From the NCBI GenBank assembly GCA_001786765.1, contig MFTH01000016.1:21666-85665 (forward strand): a DNA stretch of 64,000 nucleotides, in the 5' to 3' direction. Source of the stretch: Candidatus Nomurabacteria bacterium RIFCSPHIGHO2_01_FULL_37_25 (GTDB lineage Bacteria > Patescibacteriota > Minisyncoccia > Phycocordibacterales > UBA9973). The translations under genes were made by a program, and so were the position numbers. Below the pieces are notes generated by a model. That model saw nothing but the letters and a program-made list of their open reading frames with translations. It was not told the DNA's origin and did not search any database. Of this stretch, positions 2,837 to 49,723 are shown in pieces; position 1 is the first letter of the stretch; each line of letters begins with the position of its first letter.

Positions 2837-2911
2837 TGGTGCGCGGTGAGGGGATTGAACCCCCGGCCTACTCTACGTCAAAGAGTCGCTCTACCACTGA
2901 GCTAACCGCGC
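2837..2911 (-). tRNA. tRNA-Val (anticodon GAC), CCA encoded
   Basis: Reverse complement GCGCGGTTAGCTCAGTGGTAGAGCGACTCTTTGACGTAGAGTAGGCCGGGGGTTCAATCCCCTCACCGCGCACCA. Acceptor 7 bp, D and T arms present, anticodon loop TTGACGT. Confidence 0.8.
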
Positions 2912-3065
2912 AGATTTTCTTTATAACATTTTTACATATTTTTTCCAATAGTTCGAATGGTCTCACTAAAATTCTAGATTCAATGTGTTAATGGTGTTAA
3001 TGCAACAAATTCACTACACTCCCACTATACTTATAACTCTGCTATCGCTTGTTTGTAAGTATTTA

Positions 3066-3074
3066 TGATATAAT
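3066..3074 (+). promoter_or_regulatory. extended -10 promoter element (TGaTATAAT) 7 nt upstream of the ATG at 3081; leaderless transcript likely
   Basis: atgaTATAATctgtgaATG. Same architecture as the promoter at 6873-6881. Confidence 0.4.
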
Positions 3075-3080
3075 CTGTGA

Positions 3081-3566
3081 ATGGGACTTATGTATGAAAT
3101 TCTAAAAGAGCTAAGTAGCCAATCTTTTTATTATAAAGGGGTACAGGTTAATTTATTTGGACTCCCAAAATTTAAAGATTATTCGCGGAATAGTATAAGC
3201 GGTTCTCTCTCTTATATGCATAAAAAAGGTTTTTTAGAATATGATGACGAAAAAATAAAAATTACTCATGAAGGTCGAAAATATATAACAAGAAAATTCG
3301 ATTCATTAAAACAATTTAATTTCAAATTTGGAAAAGATGCGCCCAAAAATCTTATAGTTATGTTTGATATTCCGGAGACTAGAAAAGCCGAAAGAGAATG
3401 GTTACGTTGGCATCTAAAAAAATTTAATTACTTGATGATTCAAAAGAGCGTGTGGGTCGGGCCGTCACCACTACCTAAAGAATTTTTAGATTATGTAAAA
3501 AGTATAGGTATAAAGGATGGATTAAAAACCTTCAAACTAGCCAAAGGCTACGTATTTGAAAAATAA
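3081..3566 (+). CDS. small wHTH + PaaX-C/Cas2-fold domain protein (PaaX-family-like putative regulator)
   Basis: 161 aa. The C-terminal LIVMFDIPETRKAEREWLRWHLKKFNYLMIQKSVWVG resembles the PaaX C-terminal / Cas2-like motif (hhhFDIPE...R..LR..L...GF..LQ.SVW). The N-terminus looks like a winged helix. Confidence 0.45.
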   Translation: MGLMYEILKELSSQSFYYKGVQVNLFGLPKFKDYSRNSISGSLSYMHKKGFLEYDDEKIKITHEGRKYITRKFDSLKQFNFKFGKDAPKNLIVMFDIPETRKAEREWLRWHLKKFNYLMIQKSVWVGPSPLPKEFLDYVKSIGIKDGLKTFKLAKGYVFEK

Positions 3567-3681
3567 CAAATACTTATATTTCTGCTATCGCAGAGTTCTA
3601 AGTATTTGTTAGTGTTTGTTATTTGTTTAGGTTAACTATTTTATCTTAAGATTATATTTTAAGATTATATCTTAAAATTAA

Positions 3682-4932
3682 CTATAATATTTTCTCTTTA
3701 ATTCTCTCAAGGGCGAGGATGAATGCGCCCATGCGCAGAGAAGTTTTTGTTTTTTTTGTTTTTTCTAACATTTTTTTAGAGGCGCCTTTCATAATTTTAT
3801 TTAATTTTTCAAAAACCTTTTCTTCACTCCAATGTTTATTTTTCAAATTTTGGTCCCATTCAAAATACGAAACTACAACTCCTCCGGAATTCGCAAGTAT
3901 ATCTGGCACAACCGGAATATCTTTTTTAAATAAAATTTCATCTGCCTCGGGCGTCGTAGGACCGTTGGCAAGTTCTAAGATAGCTTTAGCTTTTATTTTT
4001 CCAGCATTTTTCTCAGTTATAACATTTTCAAAAGCGGCTGGGATTAGAAGGTCACAGGGGAGTTCGAGTAATTCTGCATTTGTAATATTTTTAGCTCCTG
4101 GAAAATTTTTAAAGCTACCAGTCTTTTTCTTATAATTTTCAACACCTTCTAAATCTAATCCATTTTTGTTAAATATTGCGCTCTTAGAATCAGATACCGC
4201 TATGACTTTATGTTTATTTTCAGTAAAAATACGCGCTACATTTCCACCTACATTTCCAAAACCTTGAACCACTACTTTGCATTCTTCTGGGAGTTTGAGT
4301 TCTTTTCGAAGAGCGTCAAAAGCATAAAAACCACCTAAGCCAGTTGCTGGGCCTCTACCTTCTGAACCGCCTTTGTCTATAGGCTTACCTGTAAATGTCG
4401 CTCTTGTTTCATTGATATTTTTATTTTTAGTTATTTTTTTGTATTCATCTGCCATCCAAGCCATTATCTCTGGCGTGGTATTTACATCCGGCGCAGGCAC
4501 ATCTTTATATGGTCCCAAAATATCAGAAAGTTTTTGCACCCATCCGCGCGAAAGTTTTTCCAGTTCTCCTTTAGACAACTTTTTCGGATCAACTGTTACT
4601 CCGCCTTTACCTCCACCCATCGGAATTCCAGCTACTGCGCATTTGAGCGCCATCCAGAAAGCGAGAGCTTTTACTTCATTTATTTCAGTATCAAGATGGT
4701 ATCTGATTCCACCCTTGTATGGCCCTAGAGCGTTGTTATATTCCACTCTATATCCTTCAAAAACTCGCAAAGAACCGTCGTCCATTTTTATTGGAATCGA
4801 AATTCTTATATCGCGATCGGGTTGGCGCATTCTCTTTATAAACTCAGCGCTAAAACTTTTGTTTATTTTAGCAACTTTGTCTAGCTGTGCCATGGCGTTC
4901 TTAAATGGATTGTGCATGTTTATAGTATACAT
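3682..4932 (-). CDS. gdhA: NAD(P)-specific glutamate dehydrogenase
   Basis: 416 aa. KGGIRYH, GIPMGGGKGG, GFGNVGG dinucleotide motif. Confidence 0.9.
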   Translation of the reverse strand: MYTINMHNPFKNAMAQLDKVAKINKSFSAEFIKRMRQPDRDIRISIPIKMDDGSLRVFEGYRVEYNNALGPYKGGIRYHLDTEINEVKALAFWMALKCAVAGIPMGGGKGGVTVDPKKLSKGELEKLSRGWVQKLSDILGPYKDVPAPDVNTTPEIMAWMADEYKKITKNKNINETRATFTGKPIDKGGSEGRGPATGLGGFYAFDALRKELKLPEECKVVVQGFGNVGGNVARIFTENKHKVIAVSDSKSAIFNKNGLDLEGVENYKKKTGSFKNFPGAKNITNAELLELPCDLLIPAAFENVITEKNAGKIKAKAILELANGPTTPEADEILFKKDIPVVPDILANSGGVVVSYFEWDQNLKNKHWSEEKVFEKLNKIMKGASKKMLEKTKKTKTSLRMGAFILALERIKEKIL

Positions 4933-4938
4933 TAAAAA

Positions 4939-5697
4939 TTAAATTTCTGGTACGAATTTTTTTAAGACTTCAAATTCTTCATTAGAGTTTGCGGCGAGTG
5001 CTTCGGTCGGCTCGATATCGATAGATTCGATTTTTTCTCCTTGGTTCATAGCTATTTGTATCAAATCAGTTTGATAATATTGTTTTTGGTCATTATTTGT
5101 TTGGAGCTTCTTTAAGTTTTTCCAAAGCCAATTTGCATTAAAACAAAAAAATATTGGATTTATTTCGGTAACTTTCTTTTCTTCATCATTTGTATCTCGA
5201 AACTGAACGTCTTTGGTGATCTCATTCTTTTCGTTACGAATTATTCGGGAAAAACTATTATAGAAAACATTTCTCCAGTCTTTAAAATCCGGAAGCTTTA
5301 CTGTAGCCATGGTTATCTTTGCCCCTGATTCTAGATGTTTATTTGCTAGTTTTTGTATCGTTTCAGTAGTTATAAAAGGATGATCGCTCGGCAAAACCAT
5401 TACATTTTTTGACTTATTTTTTAGCAAACTCTCCGCAATCATTATGGCGTGTCCAGTGCCTAGCTGTTCTTCTTGGATTGCGTAATTATATTTGTCGCCA
5501 AGTTCTTGCATTATCTCCTCTCTTCTGTGTCCGACAACCACAACCGGGTTTTCGTCTATTCCAGATTTACTGATTGATTCCAGTACGTATTTTATCATTG
5601 GCTTAGCATTTAATTGCACTAAAACTTTCGGCACCTCGCCTTTCATTCGAGTGCCTTTGCCGCCAGCCAGTATTATGATTCGTATATCCTTTTGCAT
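4939..5697 (-). CDS. sugar-phosphate nucleotidyltransferase, GlmU N-terminal (uridyltransferase) domain only
   Basis: IIILAGGKGTRMKGEVPKVL, QEEQLGTGHA. It matches the GlmU pyrophosphorylase domain. There is no left-handed beta-helix acetyltransferase half (252 aa). Confidence 0.65.
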   Translation of the reverse strand: MQKDIRIIILAGGKGTRMKGEVPKVLVQLNAKPMIKYVLESISKSGIDENPVVVVGHRREEIMQELGDKYNYAIQEEQLGTGHAIMIAESLLKNKSKNVMVLPSDHPFITTETIQKLANKHLESGAKITMATVKLPDFKDWRNVFYNSFSRIIRNEKNEITKDVQFRDTNDEEKKVTEINPIFFCFNANWLWKNLKKLQTNNDQKQYYQTDLIQIAMNQGEKIESIDIEPTEALAANSNEEFEVLKKFVPEI

Positions 5698-5718
5698 GAG
5701 TAATACATAATATATCGT

Positions 5719-5862
5719 AAATTACGAAACTTGTCGAAGGCATGTCTTTTTTAGGGGGTTTCGAGGCTGTCGAGCGCTGAACTTCAAGATTTTTCAAGGC
5801 TAATTTTTATTTGAAAAATCCGTACCCTAGAAAAAGACATGCCCAGAAAGAGTTTTGTAATT
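5719..5862. repeat. family-1 structured repeat, copy A (long form: outer stem + inner stem + core 5754-5827, core forward)
   Basis: Outer inverted repeat AAATTACGAAACT / AGTTTTGTAATT. Inner inverted repeat GGCATGTCTTTTTTAGGG / CCCTAGAAAAAGACATGCC. Core is GGGGGTTTCGAGGCTGTCGAGCGCTGAACTTCAAGATTTTTCAAGG...TTGAAAAATCCGTACCC. Confidence 0.85.
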
Positions 5863-5875
5863 CAAAGTAATATAA

Positions 5876-6475
5876 TTAAACCTTGCGTTTTGCAATTTCT
5901 TTCAGCACTTTCGGAATTTTTTTAAAATCTTCTTTTAAAATTTCGCGCATAGAGCCGTCATATAAAGCCGCGGCGGGATGATAAAGAGGGAAGAAGTAGC
6001 TTGTGGATATGCCTTTGAATTTTTTAATTAAAAGTTTGCCGTGCGCTCCGGAGATTTGTAAATCTGGGAAAAAATTATTCATCGCATGCCTACCTAAAAA
6101 TATTATTAGCTTGGGCGAAATTATTTTTAGTTCCCCTAGTAGCCATTCTCGACAACTGCTTTTTTCTTCTGGCAGGGGATCGCGGTTGTTTGGAGGGCGA
6201 TATTTTACTATATTTGTAATATATATTTCACTTCTCTTTAGATTTATCAATTCCAGCATTTCGTCCAAAAATTTTCCCGCTGCTCCGACAAATGGAATTC
6301 CGAGCTTGTCTTCACTGCGACCTGGCGCTTCTCCGATAAAAATAATATCTGCATCAGGGTTGCCAACTCCCGGCACTGCTTGTGTAGCAGTCTTTTTGAG
6401 TTCGCACTGACATTCTTCCAGCCACTTCTTATTTAGGTTTTCTAACTCTAGGCTTTTATCCATAAGGTATATCAA
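5876..6475 (-). CDS. uracil-DNA glycosylase, family 4
   Basis: FIGEAPGRSED, GIPFVGAAGKFL, HPAAALY motifs. Confidence 0.8.
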   Translation of the reverse strand: MIYLMDKSLELENLNKKWLEECQCELKKTATQAVPGVGNPDADIIFIGEAPGRSEDKLGIPFVGAAGKFLDEMLELINLKRSEIYITNIVKYRPPNNRDPLPEEKSSCREWLLGELKIISPKLIIFLGRHAMNNFFPDLQISGAHGKLLIKKFKGISTSYFFPLYHPAAALYDGSMREILKEDFKKIPKVLKEIAKRKV

Positions 6476-6633
6476 TAGTATAACTTAAAAATTCTTTTGC
6501 AATTATGTATAAAAATGTTATTATATTTTCAACTTGGCTCTATCGTTTAACCAAGTTAAAATGTAGCGGACATCGGGTTTTTAAAAACCTGTAAATTGGT
6601 GAAGCTATAATTATTAAGAAAAATATAAATTAA

Positions 6634-6705
6634 GGCCCCATCGTCTAACGGTTAGGACACCGGGTTTTCAATCCGATAATCAGAGTTCGATTCTCTGTGG
6701 GGTCA
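6634..6705 (+). tRNA. tRNA-Glu (anticodon UUC)
   Basis: GGCCCCATCGTCTAACGGTTAGGACACCGGGTTTTCAATCCGATAATCAGAGTTCGATTCTCTGTGGGGTCA. Anticodon loop TTTTCAA. One C-A mismatch closes the anticodon stem. No encoded CCA. Confidence 0.8.
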
Positions 6706-6718
6706 CAAATTTTTTGAG

Positions 6719-6830
6719 AGAGCAAACTGCTTTGCTCTTGATAAAATTTGTGAAGACAGAAGCATAATTCGTCAGTAGACGAATAGCTGAGTCCGGGTCT
6801 GGAAAATTTGCTTTCGACGGAAAGCAAATT
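6719..6830 (+). promoter_or_regulatory. three consecutive perfect hairpins between tRNA-Glu and the HEPN-like gene
   Basis: AGAGCAAA-ctgc-TTTGCTCT (6719-6738). TTCGTC-agta-GACGAA (6768-6783). AATTTGCTTTC-gacg-GAAAGCAAATT (6805-6830). Confidence 0.6.
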
Positions 6831-6887
6831 ATTGTAGACCACGTGAACTCTGCACGCGAAGCGTACAGAACTTGGTATAATAAGATT

Positions 6888-7448
6888 ATGGAAGAAAAGA
6901 TGGATGAAAATATTGACAAGAGTCTTTCAAGAACCGGGAGATATGTGATTTATAGTATTTGGATACAAAGTCAACTTTCAGATTTAATCATTTTAAATAG
7001 AAATAAAGGTATTATAAATGATTTTAATAGTCAAGAAATAATCCCATCAATTTTAAGAGAGCAGAGATATATTTTTTGGGAAAAGGATTTTAGGGAAGTT
7101 AAAGAAATTTTTGAAACTGAGTTTTCTAGTTTATTAACAACTGAGGTAAAAATGGTATTAAGCTCCATTTATTATTTGAGAAATGCTATAGTTCATTCGC
7201 ATGTTTCGGTTGGTCGCAAATATTTATTATATAAACCTAAAAATGAAAAGATAGTACAAAGCATAAAAGAAACTCTAACCATAAAGAATAAAAGTGATGA
7301 AAACTTGAATGTTCCTGAAATCTTTAAAATTGATTTTTCAAAGGACTCATTATATTTTGAAAACATGCAAGTAATAAAAAATTTTGATGAAGTTTTTCTT
7401 AAAATGATTTGTGAAAAAATTGGTGTTTTTCATCCAAAAATAAGGTAA
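6888..7448 (+). CDS. HEPN-motif protein (Abi/DUF4145-like putative RNase); start uncertain
   Basis: The ORF track gives a GTG start at 6843. In-frame ATGs lie at 6888 (leaderless, 7 nt after extended -10 TGgTATAAT at 6873-6881) and 6900. The motif LSSIYYLRNAIVHSHV matches R-x4-H of HEPN domains. Confidence 0.45.
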   Translation: MEEKMDENIDKSLSRTGRYVIYSIWIQSQLSDLIILNRNKGIINDFNSQEIIPSILREQRYIFWEKDFREVKEIFETEFSSLLTTEVKMVLSSIYYLRNAIVHSHVSVGRKYLLYKPKNEKIVQSIKETLTIKNKSDENLNVPEIFKIDFSKDSLYFENMQVIKNFDEVFLKMICEKIGVFHPKIR

Positions 7449-7590
7449 CAAGCTTAACTTGTAGAATAAAATTCTTTAAAATATCTTTAGTAGATGATTT
7501 TGCTTTAATTAAAAATATACGATACGCTTTAGCGTGAGGGTATATGGGATAGCCCAAGAGGGCAGGAAGACGTATCGACAAACACAGCAA

Positions 7591-7675
7591 GGAGATGTGG
7601 CTGAGTGGTTGAAGGCACCGGTTTCGAAAACCGGCATACCGAAAGGTATCGTGAGTTCAAATCTCACCATCTCCG
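7591..7675 (+). tRNA. tRNA-Ser (anticodon CGA), long variable arm
   Basis: GGAGATGTGGCTGAGTGGTTGAAGGCACCGGTTTCGAAAACCGGCATACCGAAAGGTATCGTGAGTTCAAATCTCACCATCTCCG. Anticodon loop TTCGAAA. Followed by hairpin GGTCGC-cgaa-GCGACC at 7681-7696. Confidence 0.8.
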
Positions 7676-7710
7676 CCTTCGGTCGCCGAAGCGACCTCAT
7701 AAATTACAAA

Positions 7711-7819
7711 ACTCATAAAATATCAATTTTTTCCGGTACGGATTTTTTGAAGGTTAAAAAATCCTGAAGTTTGCTCGCCGTCGCTCGCAAAACCCCTGCA
7801 AAAATTATATTTTATGAGT
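7711..7819. repeat. family-1 structured repeat, copy B (core 7734-7796, reverse orientation, divergent 5' half)
   Basis: Flanking inverted repeat ACTCATAAAATAT / ATATTTTATGAGT. Core is CGGTACGGATTTTTTGAAGGTTAAAAAATCCTGAAGTTTGCTCGCCGTCGCTCGCAAAACCCC. Confidence 0.8.
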
Positions 7820-7822
7820 TTC

Positions 7823-8848
7823 CTATCTTGCGTGTATATAAAGATATATATCCTCGAGAGCGCGGACGGCGTCGCCAGCGGCGATGTTGTTTTGATGATA
7901 TAGGACATTAGTGCAGTCTCCTGCCGCCCAGATACCGGGAATTTCTGTTTTTTGGGACCAAGCGTCAATTTTGATTCTTCCATATTCATCAAGTGGCACA
8001 AGGCTTTTAGCAAAATCAGTGTTTGGGATTTGTCCGATTTCCACAAAAATACCAGAGACTTTTAATTCTTTCTCTCCGCCTGCTTCCGACTCGGGAGGGC
8101 GAGCAGGTTTATAAATTATTCCTTCTACAAATTTATCGCCTTGCACTTCTAAGATTTCAATATTTTTTATTAATTTCATTTTTGGATTTTTCAAAACTTT
8201 TTCCACCGTTATTTCATCTGCGCGAAGAGTGTTGCTACGATTGAGAAGAGTTACAGATTTGCAATATGCCAGAAGTTGCGCGGCTGTTTCAAAGCCGGCA
8301 TTGCCTCCGCCGATTACAGCTACATCCATTTCCGAAAAAAGAGGTCCATCGCAAGAAGCGCAATAGGTGAGACCTTTGTGTTCAAGTTTGTCTGCATTTT
8401 TAGCAACAAGCTTCCTGCGTCCGCTTCCGCTCGTTATTAAAATTGTTTTAGTTAAAAACTCTTCACCTGATTCTATTTTGACAGAAAAATTCCCATCCTT
8501 TTTTTCTTTGGTGGAGGCGTTGCCTCCGCCATTTGACGGAAGCAAGGCTTCCGTAATGCTGATTACTTTTTCCCCTTCTTTTACTAGCAGGGTAGAACCT
8601 AAGTTTTCAGACTCTTTTATATTTTCCGTGCCTATGGCATTCGCCATTACATGTTTTTTTAAATTTTCCGCTAATTCATTACCAGAGATCAAGGTGGTGC
8701 CTATCCAATTGTAAATCTGTTCAGATACGATAGATTGTCCGCCCCATTCGGTGGTGATAAGAATAGTTCGGAGTCTTTTTCTAGAAGCATACACAGCCGC
8801 CGCCGTGCCCGCTGGCCCGCCTCCAATTATTATTAAGTCGTATGTCAT
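7823..8848 (-). CDS. trxB: thioredoxin-disulfide reductase with ~20-aa in-frame insertion
   Basis: MTYDLIIIGGGPAGTAAAVYA, CASC redox motif, AVIGGGNAG. The ORF track starts at GTG 8863. The ATG at 8848 gives the canonical N-terminus. Confidence 0.85.
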   Translation of the reverse strand: MTYDLIIIGGGPAGTAAAVYASRKRLRTILITTEWGGQSIVSEQIYNWIGTTLISGNELAENLKKHVMANAIGTENIKESENLGSTLLVKEGEKVISITEALLPSNGGGNASTKEKKDGNFSVKIESGEEFLTKTILITSGSGRRKLVAKNADKLEHKGLTYCASCDGPLFSEMDVAVIGGGNAGFETAAQLLAYCKSVTLLNRSNTLRADEITVEKVLKNPKMKLIKNIEILEVQGDKFVEGIIYKPARPPESEAGGEKELKVSGIFVEIGQIPNTDFAKSLVPLDEYGRIKIDAWSQKTEIPGIWAAGDCTNVLYHQNNIAAGDAVRALEDIYLYIHAR

Positions 8849-8878: not shown

Positions 8879-8974
8879 AAAAATGTACTTTTGCAGGGGT
8901 TTCGAGGCTGTCGAGCCGAGAACTTCAGGATTTTTTAAGCTTCAAAAAATCCGTACCGGAAAAAGTACATTTTT
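8879..8974. repeat. family-1 structured repeat, copy C (core 8896-8958, forward). It fills the ftsZ-stop / trxB-start spacer.
   Basis: AAAAATGTACTTTT-gc-GGGGTTTCGAGGCTGTCGAGCCGAGAACTTCAGGATTTTTTAAGCTTCAAAAAATCCGTACCG-g-AAAAAGTACATTTTT. Confidence 0.85.
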
Positions 8975-14834: not shown

Positions 14835-15272
14835 ATGCTTATCGGAGAATATATACATACGATTGATGAAAAAAACAGAGTTTCAATACCGGTAAAGTTT
14901 CGCAAAGAGCTCGGTAAGAAAATTATTATCACACCTGGACTTGGTCAATGTTTGTTCATTTTTACAATTAAAGAATGGGAAAAGGTAAGCAAGAAACTTT
15001 CTGATTCGGATTCTGATTTATCTTTTTTGAAAGCTGATCAAAGAAGTTTTAACAGATATATGTTTGGAAGAGCGGTGGAAATAGAGTTTGATTCGATCGG
15101 CCGAATATTAATTCCTGATTTTCTGAAAGATAGAATCGGACTTGCGAATTCCGCGGCAATTGTCGGAGTAAAAGACAGAGTGGAAGTATGGAGTGAGAAA
15201 GCATGGTCGGAGCAAAAAGAAATCGTGGAAAAGCAGGCGGAACAGTTGGCGGAGAAGTTGGGAAGTTCCTAA
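14835..15272 (+). CDS. mraZ: transcriptional regulator MraZ
   Basis: MLIGEYIHTIDEKNRVSIPVKFRKEL... A duplicated SpoVT/AbrB-like fold. First gene of the dcw block. Confidence 0.85.
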   Translation: MLIGEYIHTIDEKNRVSIPVKFRKELGKKIIITPGLGQCLFIFTIKEWEKVSKKLSDSDSDLSFLKADQRSFNRYMFGRAVEIEFDSIGRILIPDFLKDRIGLANSAAIVGVKDRVEVWSEKAWSEQKEIVEKQAEQLAEKLGSS

Positions 15273-15276
15273 AAAC

Positions 15277-15362
15277 ATAACTTTTTTCGGTACGAATTTT
15301 TCGAAGCTTGAAAAATTCTGAAGTTCTCGGCTCGTCAGCCTCGAAACCCCTGCAAAAGTTAT
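15277..15362. repeat. family-1 structured repeat, copy D (core 15288-15350, reverse)
   Basis: ATAACTTTT...CGGTACGAATTTTTCGAAGCTTGAAAAATTCTGAAGTTCTCGGCTCGTCAGCCTCGAAACCCC...AAAAGTTAT. Confidence 0.85.
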
Positions 15363-15384
15363 TTTTTAGAAACTTCAAAAATAT

Positions 15385-45039: not shown

Positions 45040-45112
45040 TTATTTATTTTTTAATTGTTAATATCTTTATTATAGCATCTTTTTGTATTATGCTATAATA
45101 GCTATAGCAACT

Positions 45113-45251
45113 TTGAATTACGAAACTCTTTCTAGGCATGTCTTTTTCTAGGGTACGGATTTTTTTAAGTTTAAAAAATCCTGAAGTTCTCGGCTCGACA
45201 GCCTCGAAACCCCCTAAAAAAGACATGCCTTCGACGAGTTTCGTAATTCAA
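45113..45251. repeat. family-1 structured repeat, copy E (long form, core 45151-45224 reverse)
   Basis: Outer inverted repeat TTGAATTACGAAACTC / GAGTTTCGTAATTCAA. Inner inverted repeat CTAGGCATGTCTTTTTCTAGG / CCTAAAAAAGACATGCC. Both stems are shared with copy A. Confidence 0.85.
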
Positions 45252-45329
45252 AGTTATAAAATTTAATTTGCTTGTTTGGTCGTTCAAGCAAAGTATTGTA
45301 TTTATTAAATATTTTTAAAGTATAAACAT

Positions 45330-48285: not shown

Positions 48286-48361
48286 TGGAGCCGGCAGGGG
48301 GATTCGAACCCGCGACCTTCGCTTTACAAAAGCGTTGCTCTACCAACTGAGCTATGCCGGC
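48286..48361 (-). tRNA. tRNA-Thr (anticodon UGU), CCA encoded
   Basis: Reverse complement GCCGGCATAGCTCAGTTGGTAGAGCAACGCTTTTGTAAAGCGAAGGTCGCGGGTTCGAATCCCCCTGCCGGCTCCA. Confidence 0.75.
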
Positions 48362-48396: not shown

Positions 48397-48523
48397 AATT
48401 ATGAAACTCAAAAATATAACTTTATGCAGGGGTTTCGAGGCTGACGAGCCGAGAACTTCAAGATTTTTTAAGCTTCAAAAAATCTGTACCGGAAGAAAGT
48501 TGATATTTTTGAGTTTCATAATT
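48397..48523. repeat. family-1 structured repeat, copy F (core 48429-48492 forward) inside a 21-bp perfect outer stem
   Basis: AATTATGAAACTCAAAAATAT...GGGGTTTCGAGGCTGACGAGCCGAGAACTTCAAGATTTTTTAAGCTTCAAAAAATCTGTACCGG...ATATTTTTGAGTTTCATAATT. Confidence 0.85.
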
Positions 48524-48535
48524 CATAAATATTAT

Positions 48536-48937
48536 TTACAAATTCTCTTCTTTTTTGATTTTGTGTTTAATTTCTCTGATTTTGTTTTTGTAGTCTCCTA
48601 TGATTCTTAAGAATTTAGAAATTTCTTTCTCTTCGCCATTTGGATTATTTTTTTTACCCAAAGTCTTTATTTTAATTTTTATTTCCTGATATTTATTTTT
48701 TAAAAAATTAGAGAATCGGATATACGACCGAAGTATTTCCACTAATAATATATGTCCGTATTTTTTTATATTTTTAATAGTAAAAAGTTTAATTTTTTCT
48801 AAGTGTGAAATTCTAAAAAGAACTTCTATATTGCTAGTTATTATTTGTCCGTTTTGTAATAAAAATAATTTTTTCCCTATCATAAAAATGATAGAAAAAA
48901 GCGATGTAAAGAATAAAATTAGAAGAAAATATATCAT
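48536..48937 (-). CDS. hypothetical small membrane protein downstream of tsf
   Basis: Hydrophobic N-terminus, K-rich tail. Co-oriented with rpsB-tsf. Confidence 0.3.
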   Translation of the reverse strand: MIYFLLILFFTSLFSIIFMIGKKLFLLQNGQIITSNIEVLFRISHLEKIKLFTIKNIKKYGHILLVEILRSYIRFSNFLKNKYQEIKIKIKTLGKKNNPNGEEKEISKFLRIIGDYKNKIREIKHKIKKEENL

Positions 48938-48943
48938 ATTATT

Positions 48944-49723
48944 TTATATTGAATAAACTTTTACTTCCTTTATTTTTGCTTTTGATTTTTCTAAAAGCTC
49001 ATTGATTGATTCCTCTCCATTTTTAATAAACGGTTGTTCCAACAAAGTTTTTTCTTTAAAATAAGTATTGATTTTGCCGTCTAGCATTTTTTTCTTTATT
49101 TCTTCAGGTTTGTCTATACTTGCTAATTCTTTTTGGAAAATTTCTAACATCATTTTTCTTGTATCAGAAGTTATTTCATCTGACGTTATGTATTCTGGTT
49201 TCATTGCGGTAATGTGCATCGCTATGTCTTTTGCAAGTTCTGTATTTCCACCAATTAAGCTAACGATTACTCCAGATTTATTGTTGTGCACATAACCTCC
49301 TAGAACATCGCCTGATACTTCATAGACATCGCCTAATTGTATGTTTTCCCCAGTTTTTTGAATTACAGTATTTATCATTTCTTTCGCTTCTTCTTTCATT
49401 TTTTCTATTCCATTTTCAAGGACAATGTTCCCCAGATTTTTTAGCAATATTGTAAAGTCTTCATTTCTAGATACAAAATCAGTTTCGCAATGGAGAGATA
49501 CTAAAACAGCTTTTTGATTTTTTATTCCAATCATTACCGCGCCGTCTTTGACCTCGCGGTTGATTTTTTTTAGCGCAATATCCGAGCTCGTCTTTTTTAA
49601 AATAGCCAAAGCTTTTTTCATATCGCCAAGAGCTTCTTCTAAGGCGCGTTTACACTGCATCACGGAAACACCAGTGGCATCACGAAGCTCCTTCACTTGC
49701 TCTGTTGTGATTTGAATAGGCAT
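48944..49723 (-). CDS. tsf: elongation factor Ts
   Basis: MPIQITTEQVKELRDATGVSVMQCKRALEE (UBA-like N-terminus). Confidence 0.9.
   Translation of the reverse strand: MPIQITTEQVKELRDATGVSVMQCKRALEEALGDMKKALAILKKTSSDIALKKINREVKDGAVMIGIKNQKAVLVSLHCETDFVSRNEDFTILLKNLGNIVLENGIEKMKEEAKEMINTVIQKTGENIQLGDVYEVSGDVLGGYVHNNKSGVIVSLIGGNTELAKDIAMHITAMKPEYITSDEITSDTRKMMLEIFQKELASIDKPEEIKKKMLDGKINTYFKEKTLLEQPFIKNGEESINELLEKSKAKIKEVKVYSI

Follow-up and report, generated by a model that had tools for sequence, protein, structure and literature searches.

A predicted HEPN-like gene in a strain-variable slot behind tRNA-Glu of Candidatus Nomurabacteria, and a structured tRNA-trailing element that precedes it

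What kind of gene occupies the interval between two tRNA genes in this member of Candidatus Nomurabacteria, and do the hairpins in front of it belong to that gene? A first-pass annotation of the window (the whole 64,000-nucleotide stretch of DNA that was analysed) had described a single reading frame with an R-x4-H motif between tRNA-Glu and tRNA-Ser, and this arrangement was recovered, with ARAGORN and Rfam locating the tRNAs, after small corrections to the coordinates (Table 1). The tRNA-Glu gene, which has no encoded CCA, marks with its 3′ end where a variable segment is bordered on the left, and tRNA-Ser is the right border of a 1,046-bp module found identical in a second genomic background. 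A partner gene that might be expected beside a HEPN toxin was not found, as the ORF list for the interval between the two tRNAs contains no MNT gene, other antitoxin partner or other plausible ORF, and the minus-strand ORFs overlap a tRNA or the HEPN-like gene itself. Rfam, searched at the gathering threshold and at E-values up to 10, returned the tRNAs and no other known RNA. The spacer between the gene and tRNA-Ser, which folds with a z-score of only −2.6, probably holds the tRNA-Ser promoter and leader, and its first half resembles, in a partial alignment, the beginning of a ~100-bp element found next to the gene elsewhere, in other genomes. This ~100-bp element borders other cassettes too, separating them in loci L004 and L007; it was rejected as a structured small RNA or antitoxin, having no conserved fold (consensus energy −0.24 kcal/mol).

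Table 1. Features of the tRNA-Glu to tRNA-Ser interval (positions are those of the window)
Feature	Position	Strand	Remarks
tRNA-Glu, anticodon TTC	6634..6706	+	ARAGORN; Rfam 58.2 bits
Hairpin domain P1	6703..6753	+	11-bp outer stem (6703-6713/6743-6753) around a perfect 8-bp hairpin
Hairpin domain P2	6755..6793	+	Two 3-bp outer helices and a perfect 7-bp hairpin (6767-6773/6778-6784)
Hairpin domain P3	6794..6843	+	Outer stem GGGTCT...AGACC around a perfect 11-bp hairpin (6805-6815/6820-6830)
Extended −10 element, TGGTATAAT	6873..6881	+	6 nt between the element and the A of ATG 6888
Gene for the predicted 186-aa HEPN-like protein (GenBank hypothetical protein A2641_02645, Candidatus Nomurabacteria)	6888..7448	+	
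Codons for R98-N-A-I-V-H103	7179..7196	+	R-[N/D]-x3-H motif, predicted RNase active site
Spacer between the gene and tRNA-Ser	7449..7590	+	A/T-rich; imperfect hairpin (7520-7526/7571-7577), weakly structured
tRNA-Ser, anticodon CGA	7591..7677	+	ARAGORN and Rfam

The encoded protein belongs to an unannotated family of ~180-aa proteins with 106 cluster representatives (roughly a hundred clusters at 50% identity). The motif lies in the stretch LSSIYYLRNAIVHSHV (residues 91-106; R98 codon 7179-7181, H103 codon 7194-7196), and in an alignment of 61 diverse members, whose identity to the window protein ranges from 17 to 64%, no residue except R98 and H103 is invariant; position 99 holds N in 35 of the 61 and D in 26, and nothing else. 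In the AlphaFold2 model of the 186-aa protein (pLDDT 94.1, pTM 0.88), the Rx4H motif sits at the C-terminal end of a helix spanning residues 85-102 and runs into a loop, which is followed by small strands and a long C-terminal helix (153-178). In HEPN domains the arginine of the Rx4-6H motif is followed directly by a polar residue (N, D or H). The motif is placed where core helix 3 ends and the loop leading to helix 4 starts (Anantharaman 2013, PMC3710099), and its position in the model agrees with that placement at a helix end. The R-x4-H match first noticed in a single sequence is thus a genuine family signature, by its exclusive invariance, its N or D at residue 99 and its position at the helix end.

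Comparison with known HEPN families did not extend this assignment, as no significant match to any family, HEPN or other, was found in Pfam, PADLOC, NCBIfam or PHROGs for the window protein, the family consensus or the 61 members, and for the window protein and consensus there was no HEPN match even below threshold in Pfam and PADLOC. The window protein itself has a weak PADLOC 'HTH' match (E 0.0055). A profile search of PDB sequences gave no matches. Solved HEPN structures are four-helix up-down bundles, and Foldseek with the confident model returned no HEPN structure and nothing with E < 1 in PDB or BFVD (TM-scores about 0.3 or less), a method that is weak on short all-helical bundles. No transitive link to a curated HEPN family was found among the ten weakest or longest family matches scanned, no further annotated relatives came from using the 61-sequence profile in a second word-indexed search of proteins, and no family relatives were found in viral contigs. 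Among the 61 members, the only families matched by more than one member were HEPN models, all sub-threshold: in Pfam, Swt1 (5 members), MAE_28990 (4), RiboL-PSP (3), pEK499_p136 (3) and Apea (2), with a best E of 0.003, and in PADLOC, RTasHEPN, matched by 11 of the 61 (best E 8.9e-4). Cas13c, Csm6 and Csx3-HEPN were each matched once in PADLOC. For the members with coordinates shown, most of these weak matches span the motif in a consistent register.

Some HEPN domains are non-catalytic, for example those of the nucleotidyltransferase substrate-binding type, and the lack of a significant profile or structural match, together with the weak 'HTH' match, would also suit a helical protein that is not a nuclease and in which R98 and H103 serve ligand or nucleic-acid binding or structure. 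We regard this as quite unlikely, as an invariant arginine and histidine separated by four residues, with N or D after the arginine, is the catalytic signature of HEPN RNases, the recurring weak matches are to nuclease-type HEPN families, and non-catalytic HEPN domains have usually lost the R/H signature (PMC3710099). The gene product is probably a member of a previously unannotated HEPN-like family.

Stand-alone HEPN defence genes of the ApeA, AbiD/AbiF and AbiV type resemble this gene in being single and small, in carrying R-x4-H without an obligatory protein partner, in occupying variable, horizontally exchanged regions, and in the RNA cleavage, leading to growth arrest, that would be expected of it. 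They differ in showing no significant sequence or structural match to the window protein, and ApeA and AbiF are much larger than its 186 aa. The commonest weak match, the reverse transcriptase-associated HEPN model (PADLOC RTasHEPN, annotated DRT), covers the motif and ~20 residues after it, but it stays below threshold, leaves the window protein itself unmatched, and finds no counterpart in the gene neighbourhood, there being no adjacent reverse transcriptase gene at any locus examined; this model possibly corresponds, we infer, to the UG22-associated HEPN cluster of Mestre et al. 2022 (PMC9226505). The HEPN toxin of HepT/MntA (HEPN-MNT) modules is likewise small and has RNxxxH as its active site; these modules differ in the MNT gene, which is missing between the tRNAs here, and in a HEPN family that the window protein does not match.

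The reading frame opens at GTG 6843 or ATG 6888 and stops at 7448. GenBank and the alignment of homologs favour the ATG, giving 186 aa; GTG 6843 was rejected because the 15 residues that it would add have no counterpart in the homologs. The extended −10 element reported before the first in-frame ATG is indeed present, at a spacing of 6 nt and not 7, and the transcript of the gene is predicted to be leaderless. TGATATAAT, followed by 6 nt and ATG, is kept at four other homologous loci (L001, L004, L019 and L028), indicating conserved spacing. The arrangement is, however, not specific to this gene, as a −10-like hexamer occurs at exactly the same offset in 7 of the 55 window genes, against a background of about 1, and a Shine-Dalgarno-like sequence precedes only 3 of the 55. 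A leaderless-type promoter is ordinary for this genome.

Comparison of related loci indicates that the gene is accessory, mobile and horizontally acquired, and that its slot opens a few nucleotides past the tRNA-Glu 3′ end. Loci L041 and L042 are 100% identical to window positions 2876-6714 and unrelated beyond, the break falling ~10 nt past tRNA-Glu, and a MOSC gene occupies the slot instead. Conversely, L030 is 100% identical to the window over 6632-7677 (1,046 bp) with flanks only 75% identical; this 4.5-kb metagenomic contig could be an assembly chimera, since its junctions fall within conserved tRNA genes. L032 departs from the window immediately 3′ of tRNA-Ser, so that the DNA past tRNA-Ser is strain-variable as well. 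The GC content of the gene is 25.7%, compared to 35.8 ± 3.8% for the window, which puts it in the lowest 0.6% of same-sized windows, and its GC3 is 20%. It is also rare, with only 5 loci among 185,579 species genomes. In L007 a frameshifted copy adjoins genes for an OLD-family nuclease and a serine recombinase, and distant members adjoin a tyrosine integrase and an HNH gene, AAA_21 and RloB, RhuM, DUF7149 or DUF3800, so that nuclease, ATPase and restriction-modification-type genes are among their neighbours. Strain variability, outlying composition, rarity and a mobile or nuclease-rich setting elsewhere mark the gene as not being a housekeeping one.

These observations bear on whether the gene could be a vertically inherited housekeeping nuclease of tRNA or rRNA maturation or repair, tied to tRNA-Glu. 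In six Patescibacteria lineages, whose proteins are 50-64% identical, it follows tRNA-Glu either directly or with one gene in between, and three of these lineages share the order Mur ligase, tRNA-Glu(CTC), gene. Such a role is nonetheless very unlikely for a gene that is replaced by an unrelated one in otherwise identical strains, is pseudogenised in L007, is a compositional outlier and is rare among species genomes. The tRNA-Glu isoacceptor beside it in the window differs, moreover, from that in L001, L004 and L027, and in other phyla its relatives lack a neighbouring tRNA and lie beside integrase or nuclease-type genes.

The slot resembles tRNA 3′-end islets or islands and integron cassettes, with variable DNA starting at a tRNA 3′ end and alternative cargo in otherwise identical strains. 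At L010 the gene is bracketed by two copies of the tRNA-Glu 3′ end, matching at 19/23 and 18/23 positions, and the divergent tyrosine integrase beside the member in L012 is a further point of likeness. The window module differs in lacking both an integrase and a direct repeat: its 1,046 bp (6632-7677) contain one ORF only, no integrase was seen beside it, and no repeat of the tRNA-Glu 3′ end matching at least 16/23 occurs within 1.8 kb. It is bounded by two intact tRNA genes, an arrangement that fits homologous recombination in the tRNAs as well.

The three successive perfect hairpins described upstream of the gene were confirmed, the second being 6767-6784 and not 6768-6783, and were found to form a larger block of three domains (Table 1). 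P1 begins inside the tRNA-Glu 3′ end with a perfect outer stem around the inner hairpin (6719-6726/6731-6738, loop CTGC); the 5′ arm of that outer stem is sequence common to the MOSC allele and the remainder of P1 is allele-specific, so that the block lies within the strain-variable segment except for one stem arm. The P2 hairpin has the loop AGTA, its 3′ side carries a conserved GAG-N-C-N-GGGT stretch, and its outer helices covary from A-U to G-C to C-G across three copies. The P3 hairpin has the loop GACG, and the P3 layout (GGGT... long hairpin ...TGACC) is repeated in L001, L010 and L030b. P1 is kept with compensatory changes in L001 and L030b. The three hairpins differ from one another and are not repeats. 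Region 6700-6892 folds at −69.4 kcal/mol, compared to −41.3 ± 3.7 for shuffled sequences (z = −7.6; none of 200 shuffles as good). When three distinct sequences were aligned to a model derived from two of their number, all 75 cells (100%) were paired and compensatory changes were present in 11 of the 29 pairs, a result that none of 500 shuffles equalled.

That the hairpins might be an attenuator or protein-binding operator of the gene, as originally suggested, did not hold up. The block ends at 6843 and so lies upstream of the −10 element (6873-6881), whose distance to the ATG leaves no room for a 5′ UTR. In L016 and L026/27 no such hairpins stand between tRNA-Glu and the gene, and upstream of the gene they are absent in L004, L007 and L019. 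A fourth copy lies 3′ of tRNA-Ser in L030 with no HEPN gene downstream. The hairpins are therefore not the regulator of the gene, being upstream of its promoter, mostly absent at homologous loci and present without it. The block occurs 3′ of three different tRNA genes, and only few tRNA genes carry one. The compensatory changes and the occurrence apart from the gene indicate an independent, tRNA-trailing structured element of ~140 nt, which in related Patescibacteria sits immediately 3′ of tRNA genes. The block was rejected as a dispersed MITE-like repeat, since the 64-kb window holds a single copy, and the pattern was absent from viral contigs.

The same evidence weighs on the idea of an AbiF-like (type III-like) toxin-antitoxin pair, in which the upstream three-hairpin RNA would bind and neutralise the HEPN toxin. 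A precedent exists in AbiF, which is neutralised by an adjacent non-coding RNA (RCd22, abiF motif RNA; PMC12373285), likewise with a HEPN-type gene behind a structured non-coding region, and in the window, L001 and L010 a structured, covarying RNA does lie directly upstream of the gene, which has no protein partner. Such a pairing is nevertheless highly improbable here: block and gene occur independently at the loci just listed, Rfam did not find the abiF motif even at E up to 10, neither the window protein nor a single one of the 61 members has an Abi_2 match in Pfam, and the hairpins are not repeats of each other.

Structured tRNA 3′ trailers are known; the tRNA operons of E. coli, for example, have 3′ external transcribed spacer RNAs. 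The block is similar to such trailers, and to intrinsic terminators, in lying directly 3′ of a tRNA in sense orientation with strong structure, and in L010 the first hairpin is followed by six T. It differs in having three conserved domains over ~140 nt and not one hairpin. As intrinsic terminators the hairpins were rejected, as the terminator scan made no call in the window and no T-run follows them in the window or L001. In all four copies folding of the tRNA-sense strand is more favourable, by 5-13 kcal/mol, than that of the antisense strand, and the sense strand has more G-U pairs, which favours a role as RNA.

The hairpins may alternatively be DNA recombination sites, the remnant, or a miniature form, of an integrative element targeting tRNA T-loops, in the manner of folded attC sites or of cis-mobilisable elements reduced to their att sites. 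Behind the block in L010 and L030b lies a degenerate direct repeat of the tRNA from the T-loop to the 3′ end (19/23 and 17/23 matches, respectively, both starting ...TGACCGA), and its position after three different tRNA genes and its near-complete inclusion in the strain-variable segment fit this as well. We consider it a somewhat unlikely explanation, given that the window has no such repeat after the block and only one copy in 64 kb, that no integrase was seen near any copy, and that the tRNA-sense strand folds better with more G-U pairs, a bias that still permits a single-stranded DNA role of that strand. A bolder extension, which we think unlikely, is that the block represents an undescribed class of ~120-160 nt non-coding structured Patescibacteria elements that insert into the T-loop-to-3′-end segment of tRNA genes and leave a degenerate tRNA-end repeat, their RNA being expressed through the tRNA promoter and 3′ processing. 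Together with the ~100-bp elements of L004 and L007, these would make up an integron-like cassette system on tRNA-derived recombination sites, of which the HEPN-like gene would be one cargo.

The reading that we favour, and consider fairly probable as a whole, is that of a mobile HEPN-like RNase gene with a toxin or defence role and a leaderless transcript, the hairpins being a separate element that trails the tRNA. HEPN RNases are metal-independent and work as dimers, and by analogy the 186-aa protein would be a dimeric, metal-independent endoribonuclease with its active site, R98-N-x3-H103, at the helix end. It would probably serve as a stand-alone toxin or abortive-infection effector. The gene lies in a strain-variable, horizontally exchanged slot starting just past tRNA-Glu and would be transcribed from its own extended −10 promoter into a leaderless mRNA. 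The hairpin block would most likely be co-transcribed with the tRNA and form a structured trailer on its 3′ side; there it may terminate or insulate tRNA transcription ahead of the toxin gene, or be small RNA cargo in itself. The sequences themselves show the anatomy of the locus, the conservation of the family and of the promoter, the strain variability, and the covariation of the hairpins and their independence from the gene; RNase activity, a toxin or defence role and the role of the hairpin RNA are inferred from them.

Several consequences follow for annotation and for the biology of these bacteria. With few Shine-Dalgarno sequences and a −10 box often found 6 nt before the ATG, gene calling in such genomes is affected. 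The locus is a clean natural case in which strains that are otherwise identical differ by a swap made at a tRNA 3′ end, and the covarying tRNA-trailing hairpin element, seen in four copies among the fetched loci, may be a new RNA or mobile element. The HEPN-like family comprises ~100 clusters at 50% identity that no Pfam, NCBIfam or PADLOC model captures. Since few defence genes have been recognised in CPR bacteria, a compact candidate of this kind for a toxin or defence RNase would be useful for their annotation and is easily tested.

In the Candidatus Nomurabacteria (CPR/Patescibacteria) window, the features first described at this locus, namely the tRNA genes, the open-reading frame, its motif, three hairpins and a promoter element, are all present, and that observation is confirmed. 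The product of the reading frame is identical (100%) to GenBank hypothetical protein A2641_02645. Of its two candidate starts, the GTG was rejected, as the 15 codons that it adds ahead of the ATG are unmatched in all homologs, and the GenBank start is the ATG.

Features of the HEPN-like gene, its family and the repeats discussed in the text
Feature	Sequence	Position	Remark
tRNA-Glu(TTC)	window	6634-6706	ARAGORN and Rfam
tRNA-Ser(CGA)	window	7591-7677	ARAGORN and Rfam
Single plausible ORF between both tRNAs	window	6843 (GTG) or 6888 (ATG) to 7448	
Three perfect hairpins	window	6719-6738, 6767-6784, 6805-6830	
Further perfect stem	window	6703-6713/6743-6753	11 bp, enclosing first hairpin
Promoter element	window	6873-6881	TGGTATAAT
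Example ORFs of the 55-ORF set	window	3081, 8848 (minus), 16429, 27991, 32934 (minus), 62054	
HEPN-model matches over motif	P0022	43-103, 61-101, 50-103	family member
HEPN-model matches over motif	P0016	86-125	family member
HEPN-model matches over motif	P0021	82-129	family member
Intergenic repeat copies	window	7691-7830, 8880-8964, 15272-15368, 45144-45188 (wider 45110-45266), 48400-48526, 5742-5798	
~100-bp element	L001	4583-4680	
~100-bp element	L004	3853-3950, 4592-4690	
~100-bp element	L007	3880-3975, 4569-4668, 5964-6062	
~100-bp element	L016	700-795	
~100-bp element	L026	680-780	
~100-bp element	L028	668-765	

The HEPN-like gene stands alone as a horizontally exchanged cassette at the 3′ end of a tRNA, with its own promoter and with no partner ORF, MNT or other antitoxin, between tRNA-Glu and tRNA-Ser. 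Its GC content is 25.7%, a level reached by just 0.6% of same-sized windows (mean 35.8 ± 3.8%), and its GC3 is 20%, compared with 29-36% in neighbouring genes. Two loci retrieved via an exact match of the neighbouring UDG protein (L041 and L042) are 100% identical to window 2876-6714, ending ~10 nt beyond the tRNA-Glu discriminator, and are unrelated past 6714, where the place of the hairpins and the HEPN-like gene is taken by a MOSC-domain gene that is richer in GC and has a Shine-Dalgarno sequence. At locus L030, from a related species, the FtsZ-TrxR flank is just 75% identical to the window, while 1,046 bp, from 2 nt 5′ of the tRNA-Glu start through the tRNA-Ser 3′ end (window 6632-7677), are 100% identical; this pattern agrees with a recent transfer through crossing-over inside the conserved tRNA genes, and L030 could also be a metagenomic chimera joined via those same genes. 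Ahead of the identical module (L030 2340-2830) stands a different tRNA-Ser(CGA), inverted and accompanied by a hairpin block of its own. A 10-nt piece of the tRNA-Glu 5′ end, GGCCCCATCG, also occurs there in duplicate, so that the site is either a hot spot for rearrangement or a chimera of the assembly. Sequence downstream of the tRNA-Ser 3′ end is strain-variable too (L032, L033). A peptide-pattern-dependent search found five loci among 185,579 species-representative genomes. Housekeeping synteny, which the first-pass annotation had set against its own proposal, is contradicted by the MOSC allele, the rarity and the composition, and a housekeeping role fits none of composition, strain variability, mobile contexts and rarity.

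In related Patescibacteria, the gene again follows tRNA-Glu, as the CTC isoacceptor, at a distance of just ~55 nt in L016 and L026/27, with a hairpin block between the two in L001 and L010, and with an additional 293-codon ORF between them in L004. Two copies of the tRNA-Glu 3′ segment bracket the gene in L010, matching at 19/23 and 18/23 positions, where shuffles attain 16/23 in ~1/200 trials. L007 has a frameshifted copy, in an island that also encodes an OLD-family nuclease and a large serine recombinase. Relatives outside Patescibacteria occur in Bacteroidetes, Victivallales and Deltaproteobacteria MAGs with no tRNA nearby, and their neighbours include RhuM and an HD protein (L013), a DUF7149 protein (L022), DUF3800 (L024) and AAA_21 plus RloB (L035). 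In L012 (80-2729), such a relative is separated by 320 nt from the gene of a divergent tyrosine integrase (Phage_int_SAM_4 N-terminal domain plus Phage_integrase), followed by an imperfect palindrome, a GTTAGA core and an HNH ORF, a layout resembling an integron cassette array with putative attC sites. In a distant subfamily, an 83- or 56-codon ORF begins 3 nt past the HEPN-like stop (L037 8570-8821, L038 736-906), a possible candidate partner gene that is absent from the window.

A profile searched exhaustively against 1.84 billion cluster representatives (E up to 1e-3) found 106 relatives, almost all single-domain proteins of ~180 aa. When 61 full-length members, sharing 17-64% identity with the window protein, are aligned, R98 and H103 are the sole invariant columns and residue 99 is N in 35 and D in 26; the pattern is the R-[N/D/H]-x3-H version of the HEPN Rx4-6H motif. 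The AlphaFold2 model built from this alignment (pLDDT 94.1, pTM 0.88) is largely helical, with the motif at the end of helix 85-102, followed by a loop with short strands and a long C-terminal helix. Anantharaman et al. (PMC3710099) place the HEPN motif at the end of core helix 3/start of the loop to helix 4, so that the helical context is as expected. No model in Pfam, PADLOC or NCBIfam matched the window protein or the family consensus significantly, the PDB sequence-profile search gave no match, and Foldseek against PDB and BFVD gave none below E = 1. When the 61 members were scanned singly, the only families matched by more than one were HEPN models, comprising Swt1 (5 members), MAE_28990 (4), RiboL-PSP (3), pEK499_p136 (3) and Apea (2) in Pfam and RTasHEPN (11, best E 8.9e-4) in PADLOC, alongside single-member PADLOC matches to Cas13c, Csm6 and Csx3-type HEPN. 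Most matched stretches cover the motif in the members whose per-member coordinates were examined. For the profile check originally suggested, no match is significant, the recurring sub-threshold hits are to HEPN models, and the motif stands in the expected helical context. HEPN membership is formally unproven; very probably this is a divergent HEPN family, a new one within that known kind, and the strict conservation of the catalytic signature suggests a catalytic RNase role. The first-pass interpretation is thus supported in part: its accessory gene of HEPN type, in a variable slot beside a tRNA, stands on R98/H103 invariance, helical context and strain variability.

The product would dimerise as other HEPN domains do, with two R-N-x3-H motifs forming a composite RNase site, and its activity would be restrained otherwise than by an adjacent antitoxin gene, possibly by low expression, autoinhibition or a trigger such as phage infection. 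By analogy with single-gene HEPN systems, cleavage of cellular or invader RNA could cause growth arrest; a link of its targets to the flanking tRNAs is no more than a bare possibility.

The promoter element ends 6 nt, not the 7 nt first reported, before the ATG. The arrangement is conserved, since TGATATAAT, 6 nt and ATG also lie ahead of homologs in L001, L004, L019 and L028. Of the window's 55 long ORFs, 7 carry a near-consensus -10 hexamer whose end falls exactly 6 nt ahead of the first ATG, against mostly 0-3 ORFs at other offsets, and just 3 have a Shine-Dalgarno-like sequence, which the genome all but lacks. Leaderless expression therefore seems to be common in this organism, and the extended -10 promoter with its predicted leaderless transcript is typical of the genome rather than peculiar to this gene, whose transcription start site is inferred.

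Other repeats were also observed. The window holds a family of intergenic copies of ~90-150 bp that show 79-90% mutual identity and no relation to the hairpin block; they resemble MITE or REP sequences, and the thioredoxin-reductase gene lies between inverted copies. One copy and tRNA-Thr (48286-48361) adjoin the 134-codon ORF (48536-48937, minus) within 48400-49100, the stretch of lowest GC in the window (21-25%), which may be another tRNA-linked foreign islet. A sequence-conserved ~100-bp element with no conserved fold opens CGAGAAGGGTC, contains TGATATACT and closes ...GGTTCTATC..GAGAAGGCTCACCA, an end that looks like a decayed tRNA 3′ part; in L007 it also lies between unrelated ORFs, like a cassette boundary. 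At L007 3140-3310, tRNA 3′-end fragments GAGTTCGAATCTCACTGGGGTCACCA and GGTTAGATTCCTGAAAGGGTCACA, each followed by the same GAGCTAGTTCGAGC box, lie between the OLD-family nuclease gene and the first cassette.

The fold of window 6700-6892 is far stronger than that of shuffles (z = -7.6). Because the -10 box comes after the hairpins, they cannot act as a 5′ UTR attenuator of the HEPN-like gene. L001 carries the same three-domain block after tRNA-Glu(CTC), with many compensatory changes, and L010 carries one of like layout and differing sequence after tRNA-Glu. A covariance model of domains P1 and P2 recovered a fourth copy (L030 2417-2485, minus strand, 29 bits, E about 1e-4) directly 3′ of the different tRNA-Ser, facing a convergent 97-codon ORF with no HEPN gene. 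Three distinct copies on the model are 100% paired over 75 cells with 11/29 pairs changed on both sides, the sequences being few, and two of the three having served to build the model to which they were aligned; 0/500 shuffles reached this pairing and covariation, and slid controls paired in just 34-49% of cells. The block was not found upstream of the gene in L004, L007, L016, L019 or L026/27, and the window holds no second copy. In view of the loci that lack it and of the copy without a HEPN gene, we treat the block as an element in its own right that is associated with tRNA 3′ ends; together with its position upstream of the -10 box, this dismisses the array as a regulator of the gene, and a role as RNA antitoxin is improbable. 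Folding favours the tRNA-sense strand over its complement by 5-13 kcal/mol in each of the four copies, and G-U pairs are more numerous on that strand, which points to RNA, or to the same strand as DNA. Degenerate tRNA repeats (T-loop to 3′ end), both opening ...TGACCGA, follow the block in L010 and in the L030 copy, and a 12-nt exact tRNA-end copy (CCGTAGGGTCAC) lies further downstream in L001; the window has no such repeat. A recombination site or miniature integrative element is the main alternative, which we regard as rather doubtful. We favour, with about even confidence, the reading that the block is a structured RNA trailer produced 3′ of the tRNA and together with it; this trailer may additionally shield the downstream toxin gene from read-through. 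This tRNA-trailing structured element is the part of the locus most deserving of follow-up.
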